Shown: positions 1 to 14,749 of the stretch, piece after piece
Layout of the letters: each line of letters starts with the position of its first letter
Numbering within the stretch: position 1 is the first letter of the stretch
Origin: Chloroflexota bacterium
GTDB lineage: Bacteria; Chloroflexota; UBA11872; VXOZ01
Length of the DNA: 64,000 bases
Reading direction: 5' to 3'
Assembly (NCBI GenBank): GCA_965216245.1
Contig: OZ244145.1
Span: 2,449,055-2,513,054 of the forward strand
The notes under the pieces: model-generated
Database searches by the model: none
Told to the model about the DNA's origin: nothing
What the model saw: only the letters and a program-made list of their open reading frames with translations
Program-made: the position numbers and the translations under genes

Positions 1-108
1 AGTCTTGCCCAGACCATTCCTAGAGTCCGTCCTCGTGGACTCCTTCGTTCGGTCCGCCAACACAACATTGAATCCAGGCTGAAGTCTGACCTCTCTAAAT
101 GAAGCCAT
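1..108 (-). CDS. P-loop ABC/SMC-like ATPase, first 36 codons only (gene runs off the left edge); candidate ABC-3C (DUF2326-like) ATPase
   Basis: My own translation of the minus strand from the ATG at 108: MASFREVRLQPGFNVVLADRTKESTRTDSRNGLGKT. This is a 'pGfNvv' strand followed by an NGxGKT Walker A. It is too short for the ORF track. It starts 20 nt downstream of the 129..359 ORF on the same strand. Confidence 0.45.
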   Translation of the reverse strand, partial: MASFREVRLQPGFNVVLADRTKESTRTDSRNGLGKT

Positions 109-128
109 ATTGCAGCGAATCGCAGTGA

Positions 129-359
129 TCATCGCGGCGTCCTAACGATGGAGTATTCTACGAAATCTATAGCTCCAATGGCATAAAGATAGTCTAGTGC
201 CAGGACAAAAGTGCTGAAACTCCCAACTTCTTGTTCACTCTTGACTGATTCCCAAAGACCATTCAAAGTCGATGATGTCTCTATGCGGTCGAGCAATAGT
301 GCGCCTATCCCAACTATTGAACGGCTGGTAGTTACATGCTTATTCGGCAAGACCGTCAT
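129..359 (-). CDS. 76-aa protein, candidate 'middle component' of the ABC-3C-like operon
   Basis: ATGA stop/start overlap (356-359) with the upstream HNH gene. It lies between the effector gene and the ATPase start. I can name no catalytic motif, so the function is assigned by position only. Confidence 0.45.
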   Translation of the reverse strand: MTVLPNKHVTTSRSIVGIGALLLDRIETSSTLNGLWESVKSEQEVGSFSTFVLALDYLYAIGAIDFVEYSIVRTPR

Positions 360-1171
360 TTTTCAAATACCTCGCACCGTTCAAATAAGTAAACCAAGAC
401 CGCTAGTCCTGCAGATTGAAATTCTATATCTGTTCTTCCTTGTGCTGAAAACAACCTCATCGCCTCAAATAAGGAATCACCCTCCAGCCCGGTTTGCTTT
501 TGGTGATGATACTCTGCTACAAATCCCGAAGTTAATCGCCCTACAAAAGTGATATCAATTCCACTCATTGATTCAACGAATTGTTGAACCTGACTAGATT
601 GAAGAAGTCCAATACTGAAGAGATTCCGTACCCGTTCAGTCAGTCCGTTGCGGTTCATTTTTTCCAACGGCGGAATTACAGACATTGAAACTGATGACAT
701 CCCTTTTCTGTTTACTAGCGCTTGAGTTATAGTCTCTAATTCTGCGAAAGTTACTTTTACCATTCCTTGCGCTAGCAATTCGCAAAACCTCGTCTCAGTG
801 TCCTCTTTCCAGCCCCGCAGCATATCTGCGGTGTAAGTACTATCTCTTGCATCGACAAGTCGATGGTGGTTTCGACACAGCAGAATTAGGTTTGAATACT
901 CATCCCGTTGTCGATCTGAAAGGTTTGGATTAGACCTCGGGCCAAAATCACTACTTGCTTCTATGTGGGCGATCTCTCCGAGAATGGCGGATTGGTCACC
1001 GTTGCTGGCTTGCCGGACTAACAGTTCGCTACAGTCCGGAAAACAGCAGAAACCACCTGATCGCGACCACAATAGAAGTAGGTCGGCACGCCTGTATGAC
1101 CTTCTACGGTTGGGCATCAGCGCTAATCGCTCCTTCGAAATCTTTATCGTTGCGTTGGGTAAATTGCCCAC
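356..1171 (-). CDS. HNH (His-Me finger) endonuclease domain fused to a C-terminal helical domain resembling ABC-3C effector C-terminal domains
   Basis: 'CCFPDC' Cys pair, then 'HIEASSDFGPRSNPN...NLILLCRNHHRLVD'. About 150 aa of helical tail ends in 'LAVLVYLFERCEVFEK'. GTG start at 1171; an alternative ATG lies 18 codons in. Sits in an AT-richer patch. Confidence 0.75.
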   Translation of the reverse strand: MGNLPNATIKISKERLALMPNRRRSYRRADLLLLWSRSGGFCCFPDCSELLVRQASNGDQSAILGEIAHIEASSDFGPRSNPNLSDRQRDEYSNLILLCRNHHRLVDARDSTYTADMLRGWKEDTETRFCELLAQGMVKVTFAELETITQALVNRKGMSSVSMSVIPPLEKMNRNGLTERVRNLFSIGLLQSSQVQQFVESMSGIDITFVGRLTSGFVAEYHHQKQTGLEGDSLFEAMRLFSAQGRTDIEFQSAGLAVLVYLFERCEVFEK

Positions 1172-1724
1172 TTATCCAATCGACTTTAGCTGAGAATGCC
1201 TTTAAAGGCCTCCAATCAGCGCGATACTCGCTCCCGCACGCTATGACGATAATACTCTCTTTTCGTCAGCCAAGCTGCGGTCTTTAGATCCCAATTATGC
1301 AAAGGGGTTTAGGTAATTGGTGCTGCACTCATTCGCAGGGATGCGATCACAATTTGGGCATCTGCAGGCTCCGCCTAAGTCTATCTCGGTCATTTTACTT
1401 CACAACGAGGACCCCAAGCGAACGGAAATATACTAGGAACAATTGTGTTCCGCCACTGGTACTGTCAACCCATAGGCGCTCAGGTTTGTGGGCATTCTGA
1501 CCGGAAAGGGAGAATTCTTCTCGATCCGATCTCTGTGTGTGAAGTTGGGACTGAATTGCTTCATATGATTGCTAATTGGGGGCTGACGCACCGCCAAGAG
1601 TGTTTGACAAGCCGCATGTTGTAGGTTAGATTCGCCACAACTTACAAGATTAGACCGGGTGCCTGGCACAGGTTGCGCATCAGTCAAACATTCCACGGAC
1701 GTGGATTACCACAAGGAGAACGTC

Positions 1725-2939
1725 ATGATAGTAAATCGAGACCAGTTTATGGATCAAGGCTACCTGATTTTCCGCAATCTTATTCCCGCGGACAGACTGG
1801 AATCCATGCGCGCCAGTTGCGAGACGATGCTGGAGCGGCAGAAGGTGAACTGGGCGCGTGAGCGCGGTCCGGATGATCCGCCGGGCGGCGAGTATGAAAA
1901 GGTCCGCCAGCCGCGCGTCATGATGAAGCGTCCGGGTCTCATCGACGCAGAGACCGCCAACGTCGTGGAAGAGTTTTGGGTCGCTGATGAGACCCTGGAA
2001 ATAGCTAGTCAGTTGCTTTGCGAACCCGAGCCTTGCATTACCGAAATGATGATGATGTGCAATCCGGTCCGCGATTGGCCCGGCGGCACCGGCTGGCACC
2101 GGGACATCCATCCCGTGGACATGGCCCCGCTGGATGCACTTACAGCAGACCTCATGGAGAACGGCCCCAGATATACCCAGTGGAACGTGCCACTTTATGA
2201 CGACAGCGTGTTGTGGGTCATTCCCGAAAGCCATCGCAGGCGCAACACCGAGCAGGAGAATGCCGAGTTGCTCAAAGACCGCGCCGCGCCGGTTACCGGG
2301 GGCATTCCGGTGGAGTTGAACGCCGGAGACGGTGTTATCTATATCAACTATCTGAACCACACCGGCAGCAATTACACTACAAAAAAGCGGCGCACCCTCC
2401 ATGGCGGCCACGCCATTTACGGAACGTACCCGGAAACCGGCTTTGTCGAGAGTCTGGCTCCTTGGGCCCGTGAGCGGTTTGAATCCTACGCCGCACGCGG
2501 CGAGCGCATGAAAGATGCGACGGAGGAAGCACTCCGCGCCGTCATCGCAAAGGATGATCCCGCTTACCGTGCCGCTTTGGATGCTCTGCAGCCGGGCGCA
2601 GGCCCCTACGGCAGAACTACACTAACGATTTGCTTGTCCAAGGTGGCGTTGCAGATGCGCATCCTGAAGGACCCCAATCACGGCCCGCTGGACGATCTCC
2701 ATCGGTGGGTTGAGGGAGAGCACGCCATTACCCTGAATTGGGGACCGGACTTCACCGCACGCTTTACCGCTGAGGAAGCGGCGACCCTGTGGAGCCGGTT
2801 CAAGGGTATGGATGCCGCGCTTCAGAGCGACGTGGATGTGTTCGAGCCTGCATTTCAGGCACGGCCCATGCGCTACTATTTCAATGAACTGCCGGACGGC
2901 ATCGACACCGAGTCGTTCATAGCGAGTTGGCGCACCTAG
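1725..2939 (+). CDS. phytanoyl-CoA dioxygenase (PhyH) family Fe(II)/2-oxoglutarate oxygenase
   Basis: 'GYLIFRNLIP', 'GWHRDIHP' (HxD) and a distal 'LHGGH'. I prefer the ATG at 1725, preceded by AAGGAG (1713-1718), over the track start at 1659. Confidence 0.8.
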   Translation: MIVNRDQFMDQGYLIFRNLIPADRLESMRASCETMLERQKVNWARERGPDDPPGGEYEKVRQPRVMMKRPGLIDAETANVVEEFWVADETLEIASQLLCEPEPCITEMMMMCNPVRDWPGGTGWHRDIHPVDMAPLDALTADLMENGPRYTQWNVPLYDDSVLWVIPESHRRRNTEQENAELLKDRAAPVTGGIPVELNAGDGVIYINYLNHTGSNYTTKKRRTLHGGHAIYGTYPETGFVESLAPWARERFESYAARGERMKDATEEALRAVIAKDDPAYRAALDALQPGAGPYGRTTLTICLSKVALQMRILKDPNHGPLDDLHRWVEGEHAITLNWGPDFTARFTAEEAATLWSRFKGMDAALQSDVDVFEPAFQARPMRYYFNELPDGIDTESFIASWRT

Positions 2940-3330
2940 ACCAAGTATTTCATTTCGGCTTGGTAGAGCGAGTCAAGACTGCGGCACCAAGACGCGCGTA
3001 TTCGGTGTTGCAACTTCCCCCGGACCGGTCAGTACGCGTCTTGGCGTTAATGGCACTCTTGACTAAAGCAACACACCACAGGGTAAATCCATCGATCTTA
3101 TGGATTGAAATAGGTCGTCAATTCCACACTGTGCAGGGATGGGCAGGGAAGGCGCCCACACACCTTGTGACACTGTTGTGTGACTTCTGTGTAGCATTCT
3201 TGGCAAAATGCGCGGCAAGAGTTTACATGTTGGCGAACTCCAGTCGGTGCCTATGTATACTTAAAGGTGTTCGTTGCACGAAGAAGTTTGTATAGGAATC
3301 TATTTCGGTATCTCAAAGAGGAGGACATCA

Positions 3331-5361
3331 GTGCTTAGCCGGATACGACGCGGTATTGCGGTTTTGGTGGCTACAGCGGCGCTCACGGTCGCTGTTTCCT
3401 GTAGTGTGCAAGTGATTCAGCCCCCGCCCGATCCCGCGACTGCGCCCGCGGAATATACCCAGTATTTCGTGGACCAGGCGATTGCCTACTACGAGGCACA
3501 CGGACTTGAGGCGACCGTTGCCTTTTACAACTCGATGGAGAGTGTGGATGGCGAGTGGTACGTCTTCATCGGTGATGAGAACGACGTGATGATTGCGCAC
3601 CCGACCGTGCCGCAGAACCGTGGGCAGCGCTTCCAGGACCTTCTCGGTCCAGATGGCTATCCCGCGGGAGCACTGATCGCCGGTGCTGCTACCGAGGAGG
3701 GGGCCTGGGTTGACTATACGTACTTGAATCCGGCGGCGGAGTCGATCCAGTGGAAACACACGTGGACGATCAGGTATGACGGGCTAATCTTTGGCTCCGG
3801 CTGGTATGAAGAAGGCGTGTCGAAGTCAGATCCGGCGGCGTACACACAAGCCTTCGTAGAGCTGGCTATTCGGCTCTATGACGCGATAGGGGTTGAAGAC
3901 ACGGTAGCGTTCTACAATACGCAGGAGAGTATTGATGGAGCGTGGTACGTCTTCATCGGTGACGAGAACGTTGTCGTGCTTGCGCATGCGGCTGTTCCGA
4001 AGAACGTTGGGCTACGCTTTGATGAGATTCTGGGGCCGGGCGGCTATCCTGCCGGCGCGCAGGTCGCAGCAGCGGCCGTTGAAGGGGGTTCGTGGACAGA
4101 ATACATGTACATTAACCCGGCGGCGGGGGCATTCCAGCTCAAACATTCATGGGTAGTGCGGCACGACGGACTGATCTTCGGCTCCGGTTGGTACGAAGAC
4201 GGCGCGTCCAAGTCCGGTGCGGCGGCGTACACCCAAGCGTTCGTAGAGCAGGCAATTCGGCTCTATGGCGCTATAGGGCTTGAAGACACGGTAGCGTTCT
4301 ACAATACGCCGGAGAGCGTAGATGGAGCGTGGTACGTCTTCATCGCCGACGAGAGTGACACCATGATTGCGCATGCTGCGGTACCCGCGAACGTCGGGCT
4401 GCACGCAAATGAGATTTTGGGGCCGGGTGGATACCCGGCGGGCACGCAAGTAGCAGCTGCGGCCACGGAGGAGGGAGCATGGACAGACTACACCTACATT
4501 AATCCTTCCACAGGCGCGTTCCAGTCGAAGCATACGTGGGTAGTACGGCATGCCGGACTGATCTTTGGCTCTGGCTGGTATGAAGACGGCGCGTCCAAGT
4601 CCGATCCGGCGGCGTACACTCAGGCATTCATCGATCAAGTGATACGGCTGTATGACGCGGTCGGACGCGAAGCCACGTTTGCCTACTACAACACGCCGGA
4701 GAGCGTAGATGGTGACTGGTATGTCTTCATTGTCGATGAGAACGACAACACCGTGGTGCATCCCACTCGTCCCGAACTTATTGGCAGCTCTCCCAAACAA
4801 CGCGTTGATGTTCGCGGCAAAGAGTATGGCCTTGAGCTCGTCGAGGCTACAGAGGACGGTACTTGGGTGGACTACTACTTCTTGAACCCGTCCACCGGCT
4901 ATGAGGAGCAAAAGCATGCCTGGGCGGTTAGGCACGACGGGCTAATCTTCGTCTCCGGCTGGTACGAGCGAGCCGAAGCAGAAGACGACGCTACATACAC
5001 CCAGTCATTCGTGCACCGTGCAATGCAACGGTACGATGCCCAAGGGCGTGAGGCTGCGTTCGAGTACTTCAAGTCCCCGCAGAGCGTGCAGGGTCAGTGG
5101 TACGTCTTCGTCCTGGATGAGAACCAGGTCACCATCGTGCATCCCAATCCCGAACACATAGGCCGCACCAGGGAACAACGGATCGATGTACGAGGCTATG
5201 ACCACGGCGCTGAATTCCTGACTGCGACCGAGGAAGGCAAGTGGATAGACTACGTCTTCCTGAACCCGGAGACAAACAAGGACACGTTGAAACATACGTG
5301 GCTTGTCCGTCACGATGGACTGTTCTTCGGCTCGGGCTGGTATGGAGAGGCAGAGGAATAG
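3331..5361 (+). CDS. secreted lipoprotein built from five tandem single-Cache (sCache_2-like) domains, with no output domain
   Basis: GTG at 3331 follows AAAGAGGAGGA. The signal peptide has a lipobox-like 'TVAVSC'. Each repeat shows 'DG.WYVF..DE', 'G.W.DY.(Y/F).NP......KH.W.VRHDGL.FGSGWY'. Confidence 0.8.
   Translation: MLSRIRRGIAVLVATAALTVAVSCSVQVIQPPPDPATAPAEYTQYFVDQAIAYYEAHGLEATVAFYNSMESVDGEWYVFIGDENDVMIAHPTVPQNRGQRFQDLLGPDGYPAGALIAGAATEEGAWVDYTYLNPAAESIQWKHTWTIRYDGLIFGSGWYEEGVSKSDPAAYTQAFVELAIRLYDAIGVEDTVAFYNTQESIDGAWYVFIGDENVVVLAHAAVPKNVGLRFDEILGPGGYPAGAQVAAAAVEGGSWTEYMYINPAAGAFQLKHSWVVRHDGLIFGSGWYEDGASKSGAAAYTQAFVEQAIRLYGAIGLEDTVAFYNTPESVDGAWYVFIADESDTMIAHAAVPANVGLHANEILGPGGYPAGTQVAAAATEEGAWTDYTYINPSTGAFQSKHTWVVRHAGLIFGSGWYEDGASKSDPAAYTQAFIDQVIRLYDAVGREATFAYYNTPESVDGDWYVFIVDENDNTVVHPTRPELIGSSPKQRVDVRGKEYGLELVEATEDGTWVDYYFLNPSTGYEEQKHAWAVRHDGLIFVSGWYERAEAEDDATYTQSFVHRAMQRYDAQGREAAFEYFKSPQSVQGQWYVFVLDENQVTIVHPNPEHIGRTREQRIDVRGYDHGAEFLTATEEGKWIDYVFLNPETNKDTLKHTWLVRHDGLFFGSGWYGEAEE
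3454..5358 (+). repeat. five in-frame tandem repeats of 381-387 nt (127-129 aa) inside the Cache lipoprotein gene
   Basis: The 'YTQ(A/Y/S)F' repeat starts fall at 3454, 3841, 4228, 4615 and 4996. Repeats 2 and 3 share long near-identical DNA runs (for example gaagacacggtagcgttctacaatacgc at ~3894 and ~4284). Repeats 4-5 form a second subtype. Confidence 0.9.
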
Positions 5362-5778: not shown

Positions 5779-7053
5779 ATGGCTGACGGGCTGCTGGCCG
5801 GGATAGGGCGCGCGACGATTACGCCGCCGTTAGGAACATGGCTGTGTGGGTTTGCCGGGCGAGAGCACGGCTGCGACACAGTCCTCGACGACCTTTACGC
5901 GACAACTCTCGTGCTCGCCAACGATGAGACCTCCATAGCGATTATTACCTGCGACGTCTGCGGCCTGCCAACTCAGCAAGTCGTGGCCTTGCGCGCACTA
6001 ATTGCGGAGCGTACGGGCATTAACCCTGCCAACGTCCTCATCAACACGTCCCATACGCATTCAGGGCCATTTACGAGCATCCGGGACGACATGCTCGCTC
6101 ACGAGCGGGCGTATTGCACCACGCTGATTCACGCTATTGCCGGTACGGTGGAACTAGCACAGCAAAGTCTGGAGGCGTGCCGCATTACGCACGGGGCAGG
6201 CAGTGTGGCGGTGAACGTGAATCGGCGCCTCCTCAGCGAGGCCGGCTGGGCAGGCATGGGCGAGAACCTGGGCGGCGCTATCGATAGGACGGTGCAGCTA
6301 CTGCGCGTAGATACGTCGGAGGGTGAGCCGCTTGCTGCCCTCGTACACTACGCGTGTCATCCGGTGGTGATACAACCGCCCAGCGTTGCCGTTTCCGCGG
6401 ACTTCGTGGGCGTGGCGCGCGGCCTCTTCGAAGCCGCCAGCGGCGCGACGATGCTCTTTCTCCAAGGCGCGTGCGGCAACATCAATCCAATCGGGCAACG
6501 CGCCGAGGTCGACATGCGGGAGCGTCTCTGGGGCGTGGGCAGCGCGCTGGGCGCAGAGGCGCTGAAAGTGTATTCGCTCAACGGACTGCACATGGCCTTC
6601 GCCGAGGGGGAACCACTCGCTCCCACACTCGGAGCAGCGCAGGAGACGCTGACGCTCGATCTACATACACCCAACGAGCCGCCGGCAGCGTTAAGTGGGC
6701 GTACCCCTGCCCTCCGCTACTGGACGCCGCCGCTCGCGGAGGACGGGAAGGTCGAGTTCGAAGTGCAGGCGCTCCGCATCGGCGACGTGGCCTTGGTCGG
6801 CGGCGCGGGTGAGGTTTTCATCGAGATCGCGCAAGCGGTGCAGGAACGCTCGCCGTTTGACCATACCATGTACTTGGGTTACACAAACGGCGACGTCGGC
6901 TACATCCCCACCGCCGCCGCCTATCCCGAAGGCGGCTACGAGGTCGATAGCGCGCACTTCCACTACAATCTCCCCGCCGCCGTGGCCCCGAACAGCGCCG
7001 GGCGCGTCGTAGACACCAGCGTAGCGTTGTTGGAATCGCTACACGATGGCTAG
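5779..7053 (+). CDS. neutral/alkaline ceramidase-like hydrolase
   Basis: 'GRATITPPLGTWLCGFAGR', 'DDLYATTLVL' and 'NTSHTHSGP'. ATG at 5779 preferred; the track start at 5743 is possible. Confidence 0.65.
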   Translation: MADGLLAGIGRATITPPLGTWLCGFAGREHGCDTVLDDLYATTLVLANDETSIAIITCDVCGLPTQQVVALRALIAERTGINPANVLINTSHTHSGPFTSIRDDMLAHERAYCTTLIHAIAGTVELAQQSLEACRITHGAGSVAVNVNRRLLSEAGWAGMGENLGGAIDRTVQLLRVDTSEGEPLAALVHYACHPVVIQPPSVAVSADFVGVARGLFEAASGATMLFLQGACGNINPIGQRAEVDMRERLWGVGSALGAEALKVYSLNGLHMAFAEGEPLAPTLGAAQETLTLDLHTPNEPPAALSGRTPALRYWTPPLAEDGKVEFEVQALRIGDVALVGGAGEVFIEIAQAVQERSPFDHTMYLGYTNGDVGYIPTAAAYPEGGYEVDSAHFHYNLPAAVAPNSAGRVVDTSVALLESLHDG

Positions 7054-8016: not shown

Positions 8017-9411
8017 ATGAGCACGACTGTCGGGTCATCCAGTCTAACGCTAGACGAACAGTTCACGCGGCAGTTTGCCGGATCAGCCGCGCGCTTCCAG
8101 GAAGCCGTGAACGTATTTCCGAATGGCGCAACCCATGATGGCCGCGCCCAGAAGCCCTTTCCGCTCTATGTCGAACGGGCGCAGGGCGCGTATAAGTGGG
8201 ACTTCGACGGCAACCGCTTCATCGATTTTCTCGTGGGCCACGGCGCCTTGATTTTGGGTCACGGCCACCCCGATATCGTCGAGGCCGTGACTGCACAGAT
8301 GCAGCGCGGCACGCATTTCGGGGCGGCACACGAACGCGAGGTCGAGTGGGGCCGCTGGGTGCAGCGGCTCGTGCCCTCCGCCGAGCGCGTGCGCTTCACG
8401 AGTTCCGGAACCGAGGCCACATTGATGGCCCTGCGGCTGGCGCGCGTGTATACCGGCAAGAGTAAGATCATCAAGTTTGAGCACCACTTCCACGGCTGGC
8501 ACGATTACGTCGTGGTGGAAGCGCCGCCAGAACCGCCCCCTGCAGGAGTCCCGGCTGGCACGGCTGACTCAATGCTTGTGCTCCCGGTGCACGACCTCGA
8601 CCGTCTTGAATCCGTCTTGCGGGATGACCCCGATATTGCCGCCGTCATTATGGAGCCCACCGGCGCTGGGTACTCCTCGTATCCGCTCGACCCTGATATT
8701 CTTGCTGCCGTGCGCAAACTCACGCTCGACTACGGCGTGCTGCTCATCATGGACGAAGTAATCACCGGTTTTCGCTGTTCGCCGGGTGGGGCGCAAGCGG
8801 CCACCGGCGTGATTCCCGATGTCACGACACTGGCGAAAATCCTGGCTGGCGGTCTACCCGGCGGGGCCGTGGCGGGACGCGCCGACATCATGGCCCACCT
8901 CGAATATCGTGATGTACCGGAGTGGAACGCCCGCAAGAAGGTCCGCCACCAGGGTACGTTCAATGCCAACCCGCTTTCGGCCTCCGCCGGTGCAACCGCG
9001 TTGGCCATCGTGGCCGAAGGTTGGCCCGCTCGCCACGTGAATGACCTGGCGGCCATGCTACGGGAAGAATTCAACCAGGTTATGGATGTTCACGGCCTAA
9101 CCGGGTGCGTCTACGGGACGTACTCAATGTTTCACATCCTGCTCTATAACCCCCACAATCCTCACGAGAAGATTCGCCTCGCGGATTTTGGCTCGGCAGA
9201 GGTGCCGCCATTTAGCGCCATGCGGGACGCCGATCCGGCGATTTACGGCAAAATGAAGCGTGGCTTGCAGGTCAACGGCGTCGATCTGATGGGGGACGGC
9301 GGGATGCTCTCTACTGCCCACACCGAGGAAGATGTGCGCGAAGCGGCTGCGGCTTTCGACCGCACTATCGGCCTTCTGAAACAAGAGGGCGTGATCCCCG
9401 GTGTGCGGTAG
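8017..9411 (+). CDS. class-III PLP aminotransferase (glutamate-1-semialdehyde aminomutase-like)
   Basis: 'GHGHPDIVEAV', 'SGTEATLMALRLAR', 'DEVITGFR' and 'LAKILAGGLPGG' (PLP lysine). Confidence 0.85.
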   Translation: MSTTVGSSSLTLDEQFTRQFAGSAARFQEAVNVFPNGATHDGRAQKPFPLYVERAQGAYKWDFDGNRFIDFLVGHGALILGHGHPDIVEAVTAQMQRGTHFGAAHEREVEWGRWVQRLVPSAERVRFTSSGTEATLMALRLARVYTGKSKIIKFEHHFHGWHDYVVVEAPPEPPPAGVPAGTADSMLVLPVHDLDRLESVLRDDPDIAAVIMEPTGAGYSSYPLDPDILAAVRKLTLDYGVLLIMDEVITGFRCSPGGAQAATGVIPDVTTLAKILAGGLPGGAVAGRADIMAHLEYRDVPEWNARKKVRHQGTFNANPLSASAGATALAIVAEGWPARHVNDLAAMLREEFNQVMDVHGLTGCVYGTYSMFHILLYNPHNPHEKIRLADFGSAEVPPFSAMRDADPAIYGKMKRGLQVNGVDLMGDGGMLSTAHTEEDVREAAAAFDRTIGLLKQEGVIPGVR

Positions 9412-9447
9412 GACAACGACTGCAAGGCAGGTACGGTTGAGGCCCAG

Positions 9448-10379
9448 TTAGAAGTGACCCTGTTTCAATACCTTGTCCAGGTCAGGGCACTTATCGTCAA
9501 ACATGAGTTGCACACTGTCAACCAGACGTTGGAATACGTCCGCATGGTATCGAGAAGAATTCAGAAAAGTAACGTATTCGCTTCTGTTTTGTTGTCGTTC
9601 TCTCGCGGTCCGATACGCTTGCCGAATACTGGAAGGGATACGTTTGGCTTTCCTCGCAATTAGAACATCATCAATCTGTGTAGACACTATGGAAACTGGG
9701 GACATATCTAGGTAGTCACAGACAAGAAAGTAAAGGGACGACGGTACTGCAATCTTGAGGTCCCGGCTGGTGGCAACTGCTTCTTGAAACATGGTCTTAT
9801 CTAGATTTGTCTTACACTCAATGCACACATATCCGAGATGGGATTCCACGCGCTCACTGTCCTCGAAGTTTTCGTTGAAGGATGTCATGATGTCATTAGG
9901 TAAAGGCGTTTACCAAGAATAAAGTCTTGGTTCTTAGTTCGAAGAGTGGGGCGGCCGCCTGCGCCAGGACTGGTAAGTGACGATGTGAAACTTAGACCAG
10001 CGTACGTATTGCGTGGGCCAAATTCAAGACTTCTGTCTGCCAAGTTCAGTGCTCGGTAAAGCAGTTGAGGCAAAAACTCCTCTAGAATTGTATTGTCTAG
10101 TTTGAGTTGGCCTTTCTGTCTGTAAAGGAAGTCTTCGGGACTGTCGAATACGAGGTCAAGCTCAACAAAGTTCTTATAGTGATTAGTCGCATAGACTAGC
10201 TGCTTGACCGCATCCTTACGTCCAATTTGCACATTCTCAAGCTCGCTAATCCATTGCCTATAGCGTTGCAAAGCCTCGCACACTCTCGATTTATCGGCTT
10301 CAGGTAGTCGTTGATTATTGAGTAGCGCTTTGAGTTTGTCACTGTGTGGCGTTGGCAGGTTTGGCGCAGCGCTACTCAT
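9448..10379 (-). pseudogene. type II restriction endonuclease (PD-(D/E)xK) split into 164-aa and 146-aa ORFs by a +8 frameshift
   Basis: ORF 1 ends '...TKNQDFILGKRLYLMTS*' and ORF 2 starts 'MTSFNENF...LGYVCIECK'. The putative catalytic D and ExK therefore lie in different ORFs. Deleting one copy of the 8-bp duplication restores a single ~307-aa frame. Confidence 0.6.
9881..9896. repeat. exact 8-bp tandem duplication GATGTCAT GATGTCAT at the endonuclease ORF junction
   Basis: Read directly: 9881-9888 equals 9889-9896. On the coding strand this is ATGACATC x2. Confidence 0.95.
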
Positions 10380-11617
10380 GCGGATACTCCCCTTTCCTTC
10401 ACCATCATTACGTCCTTTCTAGACTGGTATTTTTCGTAGGATATTCCGTCAAAATAGGGTGTGCCGGTAATCTCACTAATTTGGGAGACTGCATCGCCAA
10501 GTAGGGCATGATTGTCTTCAGGTACGGTCTTCCGTGCTAAAGCGAGAGCTTGTAGCGCGATATCTCGTCCTAGCTTGGTAGTAGATTCAAAGCCACTTTG
10601 TTGATCGTTTCTCTGCAGATTCAGAATGTCCTCGCGAATCGATGTGCCAAAGCGATTCGTGAATACTCTATGCTGACGAAGAATAACGTCGAACATCCTC
10701 GAACCATGCGCGATTTGCGCAAGAATGTCCGCATTGTAGAACGTGGCACCGAGCACTTTGGATTGATAACCAAGAATCATAATGGCTCGACCGGATGGTT
10801 TTAGAACCCGAGCTAATTCGTGTATCGCATTAGCCATGTCAATGCAGTATTGGACAACAGTGTAGAAGCGATTGCTTCGATTAGCTCGATTAGAGCCTAT
10901 TTCCGATCGCGCAACCCGCAGTAGATTCCAGCCGAGTACTTCTACTGAGCGTCTATAGTTTTGATGGTAATTGAAGACGTTGATATAAGGCGGCGACGTT
11001 AAGACAAAGTCAACAACCTTGTCGTCCAATGGTAAGTTTCTGGCATCCTGAAGGTCTACCTCTATCCTCTGATCTGAATAAGGAAGGTTCCGTACTAACT
11101 TAGATAGAGCCGCGTACTTGCCTTGCACAAAACTATTGGTGACGTGACTGTTGTGAACGTCCAGAATCACTACGAGTGCATTAAGCAGAATCTTCGCAGG
11201 GCGGCTTAGATTCTTACCAATAGACACCACCCTCCGTTCAATGTCTTCAAGCGGCGGCTCATCCTCGCGTGAAATAGTAATCGGAAACTCAGAATTGACT
11301 TGGCGCCGCAGTTCACTTATTGTTGTTTCGCGCTCCATGGGATGCACGTTGGCAATTTCATAGAGCTTGCTGAAACACCAAGCGGAAGGGTTAATCTCGT
11401 ACCCAAAGGCAGCCAGTTTCGCTAAAGCCGCTTCGTGCAACACTGTCCCGCTGCCAGCAAACGGGTCAAGTACCGTTGAGCCAGTGTCACAATAGGCTTT
11501 GAGCAAGTATTCGATTAGCTGAGGAGAAAATTGACCGCGCCAGGGAAACAGATTAGAGCGCCTCTTATCCTCAATGTTTAGCAGCGATTGTGAGAGTGGC
11601 TTAGTAAAGTCCTTCAC
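10376..11617 (-). CDS. N6-adenine/N4-cytosine DNA methyltransferase (motif I before motif IV)
   Basis: 'LDPFAGSGTVLHEAA' (motif I) near residue 50 and 'LTSPPYINVFNY' (motif IV) near residue 205. ATGA overlap with the downstream endonuclease ORF. AT-rich islet. Confidence 0.85.
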   Translation of the reverse strand: MKDFTKPLSQSLLNIEDKRRSNLFPWRGQFSPQLIEYLLKAYCDTGSTVLDPFAGSGTVLHEAALAKLAAFGYEINPSAWCFSKLYEIANVHPMERETTISELRRQVNSEFPITISREDEPPLEDIERRVVSIGKNLSRPAKILLNALVVILDVHNSHVTNSFVQGKYAALSKLVRNLPYSDQRIEVDLQDARNLPLDDKVVDFVLTSPPYINVFNYHQNYRRSVEVLGWNLLRVARSEIGSNRANRSNRFYTVVQYCIDMANAIHELARVLKPSGRAIMILGYQSKVLGATFYNADILAQIAHGSRMFDVILRQHRVFTNRFGTSIREDILNLQRNDQQSGFESTTKLGRDIALQALALARKTVPEDNHALLGDAVSQISEITGTPYFDGISYEKYQSRKDVMMVKERGVSA

Positions 11618-11696
11618 AAGAGTGTCTTCCAGAATTTGCGACCGAAGATAACCGTTCCCAATTATACTATTCCCTAGAGATTGGAGAAGTATTGAG

Positions 11697-12686
11697 ATGA
11701 ACGCTTCTGCGAACGAACAGTCCTATGGCGGGCCGGAACAAGAAATCTTCAAGCACGCGTTCTCCGATCCGATTATCGAGAACGAGATGCTGTATCCGGC
11801 GCTGACGACGCTCGATGACATATACGAGGCTAATGCCACTCTGCTCATGCCGGTCGAGCATTTCTTTACGGCGTACGAGAACCTGGAAATCGAGTCGGCG
11901 GAGTCGCTGGTGCTCGATGGCGGGGCTACGCACCTCTTGCGCGTTACGTACACCCTTGGCGGCGCCACGTATCACGGCTACGCCTATGCGCCTGCCGCCC
12001 CGCAGACGGACCGGCCGGCCTCGCTGATCATCCCTGGGAGCGGTCTCAATTGCTCCGAGCCGATCTACCGCAAAGATCCGGCGAGCTACCACGACGGCAT
12101 AATCGACGCGCTGGGCGAGGGCTTCATGAACTACGTGTTCATTAAGCCTAACGAGGACTGCCTGGCCTTCCACAACGGCGAAGGCAAGGTCAACGTCGCC
12201 TTCTTTGTGAATTGGCTGCTCAACAATGCCACCTCCTACTCCGCGGCGTACGTCGTGAGCGCCATGGCCATCACCAAGTACCTCCAGGGGCGGCATGAAT
12301 CTGTGGTGGTTGCCGGGCTTTCGCAAGGCGGCGGGGCGGCACTGCTCACGTCTCTGCAGTCGCAACCCACGGCCGCGGTCATTGCCTCCGGCTTTTCCGT
12401 AATCATGGAGCGCATCCACTGGTCGGGGCACAACCAGATCATCATCCCCGGCATCGGCCAGGCCTACAGCAATGAGAACGTGCGAGAGAAAATCAAGGCT
12501 TCGCCCACGCAGTTCCTCTTCACCTACGGCAGGCAGGAACACGTGATCTACCGCCTTGAGGCAGAAGAGCACTATAGCTGCGACTTCCTCGCCGACTGCT
12601 CCAATGTGCGCTGCGAATCCCACGACGACGGCCACATCTTTCATGTTGACATAACAAGCGACTTTTTGCGCGGCCTCGGCATGTAA
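11697..12686 (+). CDS. alpha/beta-fold hydrolase (esterase-like)
   Basis: Nucleophile elbow 'GLSQGG' and distal 'HDDGH'. Chosen over the mirror minus-strand ORF 11667..12644. Confidence 0.65.
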   Translation: MNASANEQSYGGPEQEIFKHAFSDPIIENEMLYPALTTLDDIYEANATLLMPVEHFFTAYENLEIESAESLVLDGGATHLLRVTYTLGGATYHGYAYAPAAPQTDRPASLIIPGSGLNCSEPIYRKDPASYHDGIIDALGEGFMNYVFIKPNEDCLAFHNGEGKVNVAFFVNWLLNNATSYSAAYVVSAMAITKYLQGRHESVVVAGLSQGGGAALLTSLQSQPTAAVIASGFSVIMERIHWSGHNQIIIPGIGQAYSNENVREKIKASPTQFLFTYGRQEHVIYRLEAEEHYSCDFLADCSNVRCESHDDGHIFHVDITSDFLRGLGM

Positions 12687-12796
12687 ACGGCTGGTTTAGG
12701 CACGTGCGGAGGCGGCGCTGTGGTCGCATGGGGAAGGCACGGCTAGTTATGACCGGCCCGTATCGTCGCGGCGCAAGGCGATGGGGTTGAACGGCA

Positions 12797-14749
12797 ATGA
12801 GTGCGATAGAGCACTATACAGACGAATGGACTCCCCTCAACCCCGCAATCCTGGAGGCGCACCGACCGGGTTCCAACGCGGTAGTGGCGGCGAATTGCTC
12901 GCCAGCGCAGGCTACGGTAGGAACGTGGCAGTGCGTGGCGATGCGAGTGAGCCTCGGCCCCGAGGGGTTGTGTGAGGGCGATGCCCTGGTCGTGCAGTCT
13001 GCGACGCGCGGCTTGCAGTCCTGGCCGGTGTTGCAGCACCTCATGCCGGCAGAGGCGGGATACACCACTGCCGAGACCGCTTCGGGAAGGCGCGTGACCT
13101 GCGTTGTGGCCGGGCAGCACGTGCGCATGGTCGCGGCAGAGCTGCTTCCCGCCGGAGACACTCTCTGTCTTACGTACGGCGACCGGCGCGCCGGCGGGCC
13201 GGGCATCAAGATGACGCTGGCGGCGCTCCGCCAGTGGTTTCGTATTCTTTACGTGCCGCAGAATGGCGCAGGTGCCCGCGAGGTGGTTGCAAAGCCACCG
13301 TACGTTGACCTGCTGCCGGCGGCGGCGGTCGGTCTGGACGTCTTGGCCCCAAGCCATGCTCGACGAGGAGAGGAATTCACGCTCGTCGTTAAGGCGGTAG
13401 ATGAACATGGCAACACGGTCGCGCCATTGGCCGAACCCGCAGCTATCTCTCCTGTAATTGGCGTCGAGTGCCCTCCCAATATCACCCTAAACGAGTGCGA
13501 TCGCGCTGTTCGACGCACAACCGTACTGCTCACCGAAGAGCTGCCGCCCACCGGGCGGTTGCGCCTCGTCGTTCGCCAACCCAATAGTGGCACCGTAGGA
13601 TTCAGCAATGCGGTGGAGGTGCTCCCCGAAGATAACCCCTCCGACCGCATCTTCTGGGGCGATTTGCATGCGCATACCTCTCACGGCCACGCGTACGGCG
13701 AGATCGAAGACCTCTACCATTACGCGCGCGATGAGGCGCGGCTCGACTTCGTAGCGCATGTGGAGCACTACACGCGCGCGGGCGAGTGGCTGCACCCGTG
13801 GTGGCGGCGGCGCTATCCCGAATGTCAAACGGTTGAAGACTTCGTCCAGCGCTCCTGGCAGGAGCGTCTGGCGCAGGCGCGGAAGTTCGATGCGCCGGGT
13901 CGGTTCGTGCCGTTGCTGGGTTTCGAGTGGGCGCACACCACGGGGCATCTCAACGGCTTCTTCCCCGGTTTGGAGGCGCCGCTTGTCTATCCCACGAGCT
14001 TTCGCGATCCGGCGATGACCCCTGCTCACCTCAAAGCGCTGCTTGCAGGACATGAGTGGTTCGGCGTGCCCCACCATACCGCCTTCCCGCTGGGTCGGGG
14101 TACCTTGGGCGGGTTCCGTTGGGAACTCTTCGATCCTGAGACCATGCCCTGCGTGGAGATTGCGTCCAAGCAAGGGAACGGTGAGTACTTCGGCGCGCCG
14201 TACGCGGCGCTGCCATCGGGAGTAGGGGGCACAATACGCGAGGGGTTGGGAAGAAAACTGCGCTTTGGCTTCGTGGGCGCAACGGATACGAATATCGCGC
14301 GGCCGGGCTCGTTCACGGCCCAGGAAAAACGCCAGCGGCTGCCGGGACTGACGGCGGTGTTTGCGCCTGCCCTGGAGCGTGAGTCGATCTACAACGCAAT
14401 CCGCCAGCGGCGTTGCTACGCTACCCTCGGCGGCAGACCTATCTTACGCTTCTCTATCAACGGCGCGTTCATGGGCGAGTCGTTGCGCTTGGCACGTGCC
14501 GACACCGTGAAGCACATCGTGTGCGACGTAGCCGGCACGGCAGAGCTGGAGCGCGTGGAATTGATCAAGAACGGCGAACCGTTCTTTCAGTTCGTTACCA
14601 CGGACACCGGCGTCCACAACCGCACGTACGACTACCGCGAAGAGTTCCCCGACATGAACCCCAGCCAAGCAGGCGACTACTACTATCTGCGCGTGCAGCA
14701 ATTCGACGGCGCCCTCGCCTGGTCAAGCCCCATCTGGATCGACCTGTAA
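12797..14749 (+). CDS. DUF3604-like (PHP-fold-like) metal-dependent hydrolase
   Basis: 'IFWGDLHAHTSHGH' and 'FVAHVEH', at the size typical of DUF3604 proteins. Confidence 0.65.
   Translation: MSAIEHYTDEWTPLNPAILEAHRPGSNAVVAANCSPAQATVGTWQCVAMRVSLGPEGLCEGDALVVQSATRGLQSWPVLQHLMPAEAGYTTAETASGRRVTCVVAGQHVRMVAAELLPAGDTLCLTYGDRRAGGPGIKMTLAALRQWFRILYVPQNGAGAREVVAKPPYVDLLPAAAVGLDVLAPSHARRGEEFTLVVKAVDEHGNTVAPLAEPAAISPVIGVECPPNITLNECDRAVRRTTVLLTEELPPTGRLRLVVRQPNSGTVGFSNAVEVLPEDNPSDRIFWGDLHAHTSHGHAYGEIEDLYHYARDEARLDFVAHVEHYTRAGEWLHPWWRRRYPECQTVEDFVQRSWQERLAQARKFDAPGRFVPLLGFEWAHTTGHLNGFFPGLEAPLVYPTSFRDPAMTPAHLKALLAGHEWFGVPHHTAFPLGRGTLGGFRWELFDPETMPCVEIASKQGNGEYFGAPYAALPSGVGGTIREGLGRKLRFGFVGATDTNIARPGSFTAQEKRQRLPGLTAVFAPALERESIYNAIRQRRCYATLGGRPILRFSINGAFMGESLRLARADTVKHIVCDVAGTAELERVELIKNGEPFFQFVTTDTGVHNRTYDYREEFPDMNPSQAGDYYYLRVQQFDGALAWSSPIWIDL

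Follow-up and report, generated by a model that had tools for sequence, protein, structure and literature searches.

What kind of system is encoded by three co-directional reading frames that run off the left edge of a sequenced stretch of bacterial DNA, and how would their products act together? The question is raised by positions 1-1171 of a 64,000-nucleotide (nt) stretch of contig OZ244145.1 from a Chloroflexota bacterium, the whole of which is referred to here as the window, with the operon located on the minus strand at 1-1117. The host chromosome is Dehalococcoidia-like (Chloroflexota) and belongs to an uncultured, marine-type lineage. A first-pass annotation had read the genes as an ABC-three-component (ABC-3C) conflict operon armed with an HNH nuclease, a reading borne out by profile searches that matched all component families and that assign the trio to a CTD10 effector, an MC6 middle component and a DUF2326 ABC ATPase. 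The operon is very probably a short type II Lamassu/ABC-3C operon of the HNH subtype (PADLOC PDC-M68), and the fuller account, in which such an operon sits on a horizontally acquired islet and acts by effector release, is likely to be the best explanation of the locus.

The ABC-3C architecture was defined computationally (Krishnan, Burroughs, Iyer, Aravind 2020), and several papers equate ABC-3C with the Lamassu superfamily, in which type II LmuA-LmuC-LmuB corresponds to DdmABC. A 2025 survey separates long from short Lamassu, the short form displaying an LmuB of ~600 amino acids (aa), a Walker B motif hhhhD[Q/S/T/E] and zero to two zinc hooks; the same survey lists HNH as a short-Lamassu-specific effector and includes ABC-3C predictions in its seed set. 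The operon studied here comprises (i) a coiled-coil ATPase with a DUF2326 region, (ii) an effector with an N-terminal enzyme and a C-terminal domain (CTD), and (iii) a middle component encoded between them, and its adjacent genes match both PDC-M68A and PDC-M68B. This is the architecture of ABC-3C and of PDC-M68, both computational definitions; among the NCBIfam profiles no match was found for any of the three proteins. Operons of this kind are already catalogued, having been defined computationally in 2020, represented in Pfam and PADLOC, annotated in RefSeq and counted as a Lamassu subtype in the 2025 survey, and the locus opens no new category but adds a further example within that architecture.

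The effector matches PADLOC PDC-M68A with an E-value of 2e-82, aa 25-270 of the 271-aa open reading frame (ORF) aligning with positions 4-251 of the 253-position profile. Its Pfam matches comprise HNH_2, above the cut-off, and CTD10 (E 6e-6), the latter scoring 27.2-27.4 bits, just under the Pfam cut-off of 28.1, and spanning positions 2-134 of 134; the C-terminal half of the protein, expected at first pass to fall into a CTD family, is therefore placed in one by a full-length match. CTD10 is also matched by 70 of the 93 effector homologues, with a best E-value of 3e-8, and the AlphaFold2 (AF2) model of the effector (predicted local distance difference test, pLDDT, 86) places the CTD helices at residues 124-247. 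The motif CCFPDC, the segment NLILLCRNHHRLVD and the C-terminal end LAVLVYLFERCEVFEK, all noted earlier, were confirmed in this gene.

Sequence searches of the PDB relate the HNH domain to the HNH of SPARHA (9om4_A, E 2e-21) and to Cap5 (7rwk, E 5e-12), and the top Foldseek matches of the effector model are chains of the activated Cap5 tetramer (8fmf, 9dih and 8fmh), on which the model superimposes with a root-mean-square deviation of 3.1-3.4 Å over ~110 residues. Residues C24, C29, H51, N76, C81, H84, H85 and D89 are invariant across the 93 homologues; C24, C29, C81 and one of H84/H85 are predicted to form the zinc site, with H51, N76 and the other of H84/H85 as the putative catalytic residues. 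An N-terminal helix is present at aa 10-20, including an invariant W17, and the equivalent helix mediates dimerization in Cap5 and SPARHA (SPARHA study). Judged by its sequence and fold, the effector nuclease belongs to the Cap5/SPARHA HNH clade, and it preserves all catalytic and zinc residues. That clade works as tetramers and occurs also in ABC-3C effectors (SPARHA study). Compared with Cap5 and SPARHA (8fmf, 9dih, 7rwk, 9om4), the effector displays the same HNH clade, N-terminal helix, zinc site and catalytic histidine but a different partner region, since Cap5 carries a SAVED domain that binds cyclic nucleotides and SPARHA an APAZ/Argonaute partner, whereas CTD10, by analogy, would dock the effector to an ABC ATPase.

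The CTD10 half searched alone returned 542 representative clusters among 1.84 billion proteins, in which it is always C-terminal and mostly part of ~250-aa HNH proteins. It is predicted, by analogy, to be the docking and oligomerization module of the effector. Three proteins (P0270, P0277 and P0283) display CTD10 behind PNP_UDP_1, a nucleoside phosphorylase/nucleosidase domain, instead of HNH. Because it is paired with either HNH or PNP_UDP_1, CTD10 appears to behave as a swappable adaptor, and the PNP_UDP_1-CTD10 proteins would imply Lamassu/ABC-3C variants that attack nucleosides or nucleotides via the same adaptor.

The 76-aa protein in the lmuC position is a member of Pfam MC6 (E 5e-17, 62.1 bits against a cut-off of 27.2), in agreement with its earlier reading as a middle component. 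Four further public contigs, L001-L004, encode exactly the same protein; L001-L003 are 97% identical to the window over positions 1-2939, and L004 displays 99.6% DNA identity over 1-805 and runs 1.7 kb further. In all four, the 76-aa gene is followed by a gene for a 580-aa ATPase (99% identity between L004 and L001), and these near-identical contigs supply what the first-pass annotation had expected beyond the left edge, an ABC ATPase with a coiled-coil insert, here of ~280 aa. A database entry on a 3.70-Mb contig (P0121) is 100% identical to the L004 ATPase; because this entry appears to come from the window's own genome, an intact ATPase gene is almost certainly present there.

The window itself holds codons 1-44 of the ATPase gene, and the full-length data refer to the L004 protein. 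The 44-codon fragment, MITAIRCNMASFREV...SRNGLGKT, comprises the first β-strands and Walker A (G40-L-G-K43-T44); the shorter edge fragment, MASFREVRLQPGFNVVLADRTKESTRTDSRNGLGKT, had correctly been taken as a strand plus Walker A, and its 36 aa already match PDC-M68B with an E-value of 4e-14. The E-values for MC6, PDC-M68A and this fragment place the observation well beyond chance. The complete protein matches PDC-M68B with E 2e-199 (1-580 against 1-581 of 581) and, over aa 446-580, Pfam DUF2326 (E 4e-39; 134 bits, cut-off 28.7), in addition to AAA_23. The PADLOC LmuB profile PDLC03859 matches in part (aa 38-428, E 1e-11), with PDC-M68B far better. All 67 homologues compared share Walker A (NGLGK43T), the SGSQG signature and LLIHD508-S509 without variation, so that Walker B presents an invariant Ser509 after LLIHD508 and is devoid of the catalytic glutamate; there is no CxxC hook motif in the protein. 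With 580 aa, a canonical Walker A and a Walker B of the form hhhhD[Q/S/T/E], the ATPase fits the description of the ~600-aa short-Lamassu LmuB.

The AF2 model of the ATPase (pLDDT 75) shows a split ABC head and long antiparallel helices at ~aa 171-450 with a break at 292-313; in this model, a coiled coil interrupts the SMC/Rad50-like head of the protein. The best Foldseek match is B. subtilis YydD (9a6c_A, E 2e-22), from an integrative YydD-YydB model, with a template modeling (TM) score of ~0.54 and 18% identity. Ranks 2-5 are the LmuB chains 9uxh_F, 9ux7_A, 9hqx_B and 9nyg_B (E 1e-11 to 2e-9), which are the best experimentally solved fold matches, and SMC, Rad50, cohesin, Smc5/6, JetC and AriA rank below LmuB. 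JGI labels ATPase homologues as 'YydD (DUF2326 family)'. The partner of YydD, YydB, is presumably a predicted phosphoesterase, a different effector protein from the one encoded here.

The structural comparison with type II Lamassu (V. cholerae DdmABC; Salmonella enterica LmuACB; 9hqx, 9uxh, 9nyg) discloses a common plan: the same order of effector, small middle component and SMC-like ATPase, the same ~600-aa coiled-coil ATPase with a Walker B devoid of the catalytic glutamate, and the same effector layout of N-terminal nuclease and C-terminal helical CTD. Besides these similarities, the solved systems display a Cap4 PD-(D/E)xK nuclease and an MC3 middle component, whereas the operon in the window encodes a Cap5-type HNH and MC6, and its ATPase bears the DUF2326 signature without sequence-level similarity to solved LmuB.

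A side observation concerns the ATPase coiled coil, where Pfam CTD10 matches aa 290-384 (L004:1541-1825, outside the window), at the coiled-coil apex and descending helix, with 33.8 bits, over the cut-off and stronger than on the CTD of the effector itself; a precomputed CTD10 match is present in nearly all homologues of the ATPase. Comparison of the effector and ATPase family profiles by hhalign detected no homology (probability 0.2%). A biased composition of the helices or the content of the Pfam seed could account for the match; a docking fold common to the effector CTD and the hinge of the ATPase could be another cause, to which the profile-profile comparison lent no support.

At the level of gene arrangement, the tight minus-strand trio, the 76-aa ORF and the ATGA overlap at 356-359 described at first pass were seen again in the sequence. 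The order is lmuA-lmuC-lmuB in one co-directional operon, with the stop of the effector gene overlapping the start of the 76-aa gene at 356-359 and a second ATGA at 129-132, where the stop of the 76-aa gene overlaps the ATPase ATG at 132-130. The earlier placement of the third start at 108, after a 20-nt gap, has to be replaced by a start at 132, which adds eight in-frame codons (MITAIRCN) upstream of the ATG at 108, because (i) four related contigs call the ATG at 132-130, (ii) the MITAIRCN residues are conserved in 67 homologues (M1, I2, R6, N8 and M9 in at least 90%), (iii) PADLOC profile position 10 aligns to residue 2 of the short version, and (iv) in 45 of 50 complete loci an ATGA or GTGA contains the stop of the middle-component gene. 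The effector ORF is open to a GTG at 1171 (356..1171, 271 aa); the ATG at 1117 (253 aa) is most likely the start, because homologues of 253-254 aa begin at the same place, related contigs call this ATG and an AAGGAG lies upstream of it. The effector stop falls inside ATGA or GTGA in 48 of the 50 complete loci, from many phyla, and translational coupling of the three genes appears to be implied by the 4-nt start/stop overlaps. The coordinates of the features are collected in the table.

Table. Features of the HNH-subtype operon and its upstream stretch, in window coordinates
Feature	Position	Strand	Basis or remark
lmuB-like DUF2326 ABC ATPase, 5' end, 44 codons	1..132	-	cut by window edge; sequence read
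76-aa middle component, ABC-3C MC6, lmuC position	129..359	-	Pfam MC6
253-aa effector, lmuA position, HNH + CTD10	356..1117	-	PADLOC PDC-M68A, Pfam HNH_2 + CTD10, AF2 model
HNH domain, effector aa 6-109	791..1102	-	PDB sequence matches, Foldseek, conservation
CTD10 domain, effector aa 126-252, all-helical	362..742	-	Pfam CTD10 positions 2-134 of 134; AF2 helices
Island-specific low-GC upstream stretch	1118..1600	.	missing from empty-site relative L103

A scan of one genome per species returned 498 relatives of the effector and 63 loci with a match beyond the HNH domain. Complete, co-directional effector-MC6-DUF2326 ATPase operons are present in 50 of the 63, an MC6 homologue lying between effector and ATPase in every one of these 50; the remainder comprise five loci cut by contig ends and eight disrupted or decayed, and in none of the 63 was a full effector found without its partners. 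In both bacteria and archaea, the three genes are kept as one unit. The closest effectors (54-68% identity) come from Dehalococcoidia and other Chloroflexota, with further bacterial hosts in Acidobacteriota, Myxococcota, Magnetococcales, Spirochaetota, Verrucomicrobiota and Cyanobacteria, and archaeal hosts in Methanothrix, Methanoperedens, Methanobacterium, Nitrosopumilaceae and Bathyarchaeia. In phage genomes, no full effector was found, the matches being confined to the HNH domain.

Plasmid-borne trios occur in Rhizobium, Agrobacterium, Sinorhizobium, Blastomonas, Pseudomonas, Rhodococcus and Arthrobacter, and RefSeq labels the genes of a plasmid trio as HNH endonuclease, ABC-three component system middle component 6 and DUF2326 domain-containing protein. 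The copy on Rhizobium lusitanum p_4 (HB780_RS02810-RS02820) displays the same trio with 4-nt overlaps and an effector ~33% identical; it is plasmid-borne in an alphaproteobacterium, whereas the operon studied here lies on a chromosomal islet of an uncultured Chloroflexota. On that plasmid (L115, NZ_CP050306.1 29561-38316), a TIGR02391-family gene directly follows the trio, which is flanked by DUF6088, a CoiA-family gene and an IS3 transposase, a setting that resembles a defence island.

Is the operon a resident of this chromosome or a late arrival? The G+C content (GC) is 0.46 over 1-1117 and 0.49 over 1118-1724, compared with 0.58 in the whole window and ~0.60 in the flanks. In an empty-site relative, the metagenome contig L103, the flanking genes, an MTS methyltransferase (93% aa identity to L103) and PhyH (88%), are separated by 553 bp that contain no operon. 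Homology to L103 ends ~60 bp past the ATPase stop (L001 ~12030, with the stop at 11970) and at window ~1600, so that an islet of ~3.27 kb replaces ~335 bp. Its right edge, at ~1600, lies just left of a conserved PhyH promoter-like site, TTGACA-17-TAGATT (1604-1632, plus strand); the AT-richer patch described at first pass is thus confirmed in composition, with its edge moved from near 1700 to ~1600 by the empty-site comparison. Because of the empty-site relative, the low GC and the plasmid-borne copies, the evidence points to a horizontally acquired, mobile islet. The islet contains no integrase, transposase or replication gene, and no convincing att-like repeats were found at it, a sole 14-nt direct repeat (13/14; L001 9168 and 12020) being treated as chance.

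A comparison with L001-L003, which are low-coverage metagenome assemblies, adds that the islet and the adjacent MTS methyltransferase gene (L001 ~8700-13200, equivalent to window 1-1800) display 0-6 differences per 300 bp between the window and L001-L003; among L001-L003 themselves the islet shows 0-2 differences per 300 bp. The flanks, compared among the window and L001-L003, show ~10-45 per 300 bp. Because the islet is near-identical while the flanks diverge, these sequences suggest a recent recombinational spread of the islet between co-occurring strains.

How, then, would the trio work? Cryo-electron microscopy (cryo-EM) of Lamassu from V. cholerae, Salmonella and Bacillus (2025) revealed that a single LmuA is anchored by its CTD to the folded coiled coils of an LmuB pair, joined in type II Lamassu by LmuC; the complex, whose LmuB has a deviant Walker B, binds DNA ends, and released LmuA tetramerizes via its CTD, giving an active Cap4 nuclease site. 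Both Lamassu structural studies propose release and CTD tetramerization as general, DdmABC-type Lamassu also eliminates plasmids, and function-tested members of the family restrict phages as well as plasmids. The earlier statement that no experimental work was known is outdated for the family, in view of these Lamassu/DdmABC phenotypes and cryo-EM structures, and holds for the HNH subtype, for which a literature search found no published experiment; further searches turned up no paper on PDC-M68 and none of use on DUF2326 or YydD.

With the solved Cap4-type Lamassu complexes as template, two ATPase protomers and one middle component would keep a single effector inactive, its CTD buried on the folded coiled coil. 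The complex would bind phage or plasmid DNA ends, or aberrant replication structures, and ATP-driven engagement of the heads would release the effector. Freed effectors would then oligomerize via CTD10, bringing HNH domains together into a composite double active site, and indiscriminate DNA cleavage would result in abortive infection or plasmid elimination. This sequence of sequestration, sensing, release, oligomerization and DNA degradation, taken as stated, is favored by a modest degree over its being wrong in some step.

Several points weigh against the identification or the mechanism. All lines of evidence are computational, the mechanism is drawn by analogy, and sequestration and tetramerization via CTD10 are in particular assumed from the Cap4-type template. 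CTD10 and MC6 are without solved counterparts; the CTDs of solved LmuA are CTD7 and CTD12, and the Foldseek search with the whole effector matched the HNH half only, leaving CTD10 without a structural counterpart. The glutamate that bridges the Cap5/SPARHA tetramer corresponds to E48 in this effector, a position occupied by Q, E, H, R or K across the family. Regarding the ATPase, only 44 codons lie inside the window, no PDB sequence match to LmuB, Rad50 or SMC was obtained with either the single sequence or a 67-sequence profile, and its link with LmuB consists of the fold ranking and one partial PADLOC LmuB profile match. PADLOC, moreover, lists the system as the candidate PDC-M68 and not as Lamassu.

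The variable bridging residue and the absence of a solved CTD10 counterpart would also suit a restriction-like scheme in which the complex recruits or licenses the HNH nuclease on invading DNA, with no effector release and no host killing, and which gains further from the elimination of plasmids by DdmABC-type Lamassu and from the direct binding of DNA ends by LmuACB. It is nevertheless an unlikely scheme, given that both Lamassu structural studies found release followed by CTD-mediated tetramerization, proposed as general, and that the HNH clade needs oligomerization for its active site. We likewise hold it improbable that the HNH-CTD10/MC6/DUF2326 clade as a whole differs from Cap4-type Lamassu in its trigger, in an assembly other than that of CTD7/CTD12 or in non-lethal licensing, the second of these options being entertained because the Cap5-type bridging residue is not conserved. 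The module might instead serve mainly the mobile elements that carry it, as plasmid or island addiction or as an inter-element weapon and not as host phage defence. Trios on plasmids of Rhizobium, Agrobacterium, Sinorhizobium, Blastomonas, Rhodococcus and Arthrobacter near insertion sequence (IS) elements, and an islet near-identical among strains whose flanks differ by 3-10%, would be in keeping with such a role, which we still consider very unlikely because the locus is chromosomal, its islet is devoid of integrase, transposase and replication gene, and function-tested relatives restrict phages as well as plasmids.

Two further explanations set the operon outside Lamassu altogether. Septu (PtuA/PtuB) pairs an ABC ATPase with an HNH protein, and the HNH found here matches Cap5/SAVED-HNH profiles, so that either Septu or a stray CBASS Cap5 effector parted from its cyclase might be considered; the middle component and the long coiled coil, both missing in Septu, make this highly improbable. 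Both candidates were rejected: no PtuA/PtuB profile occurs among the PADLOC matches of the proteins, and the effector has no SAVED domain, aligns to Cap5 over aa 6-131 only and has no nucleotidyltransferase/cyclase gene nearby. Least credible of all is a housekeeping Rad50/SbcC-like repair ATPase with an accessory nuclease. The ATPase fold does match Rad50, SMC and RecN as well, but in the Foldseek ranking Rad50 comes below LmuB and YydD, Walker B is devoid of its glutamate, there is no Mre11/SbcD partner, and the low-GC islet, the plasmid copies, the patchy spread over phyla and a close relative without the locus are at odds with a housekeeping function; the empty site, low GC, plasmid copies and fold ranking ruled this candidate out.

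As a short Lamassu of the HNH subtype, the locus provides a clean, intact example from an uncultured Dehalococcoidia lineage little studied for defence, to which are added an empty-site comparison and signs of recent inter-strain spread. An HNH-CTD10 system bears on whether the 'sequester, release, oligomerize' logic of Cap4 also governs Cap5-type HNH nucleases via CTD10.

Decayed copies of the operon were observed in L055, L058, L066, L012, L014, L047, L010 and L067, mostly from Dehalococcoidia. The remnants in L055 and L058 (5995-6640) comprise the C-terminal 95 aa of the effector (76-77% identity) and a truncated MC6, without the ATPase, and adjoin a Cache-repeat gene like that near the islet in the window. 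The HNH part alone is left in L066 (5950-6294), L012 displays an insertion of ~1.2 kb between effector and MC6, and L014 and L047 (the latter an 'uncultured bacterium') carry truncated ATPase ORFs.

The same HNH clade also forms the N-terminus of ORFs of ~1,350-1,450 aa in L068, L070, L071, L072 and L075, which start near locus position 5900-6000 (at 273 in L071) and are without an MC6 or DUF2326 partner. Their hosts are Halococcus, Natrialba, Latescibacterota, Spirochaetia and a gammaproteobacterial metagenome-assembled genome, and these giant proteins may be STAND-type or other sensors.

Upstream of the operon, 1118-1600 comprises ~480 bp of island-specific DNA without a convincing ORF; neither as DNA nor in translation does it resemble the sequences upstream of other loci. 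It presumably holds the operon promoter and leader, and may alternatively be a remnant of cargo. On the minus strand, 1543-1514 weakly resembles a promoter, and a 6-bp hairpin with a T-rich tail is present at 1451-1436; the promoter/terminator scan of 1-1800 was not usefully above shuffled expectation, and no tRNA or Rfam family was found in the whole window. Further along, the plus strand of the window encodes a 695-aa ORF (3274-5361) comprising five to six tandem units of ~130 aa, each sCache_2/dCache-like. Within the neighbourhood, strains diverge most in this ORF, which is broken up into two or three ORFs in L001 and L003 and has 609 aa in L002; either the number of repeats varies or the assemblies are unstable there.

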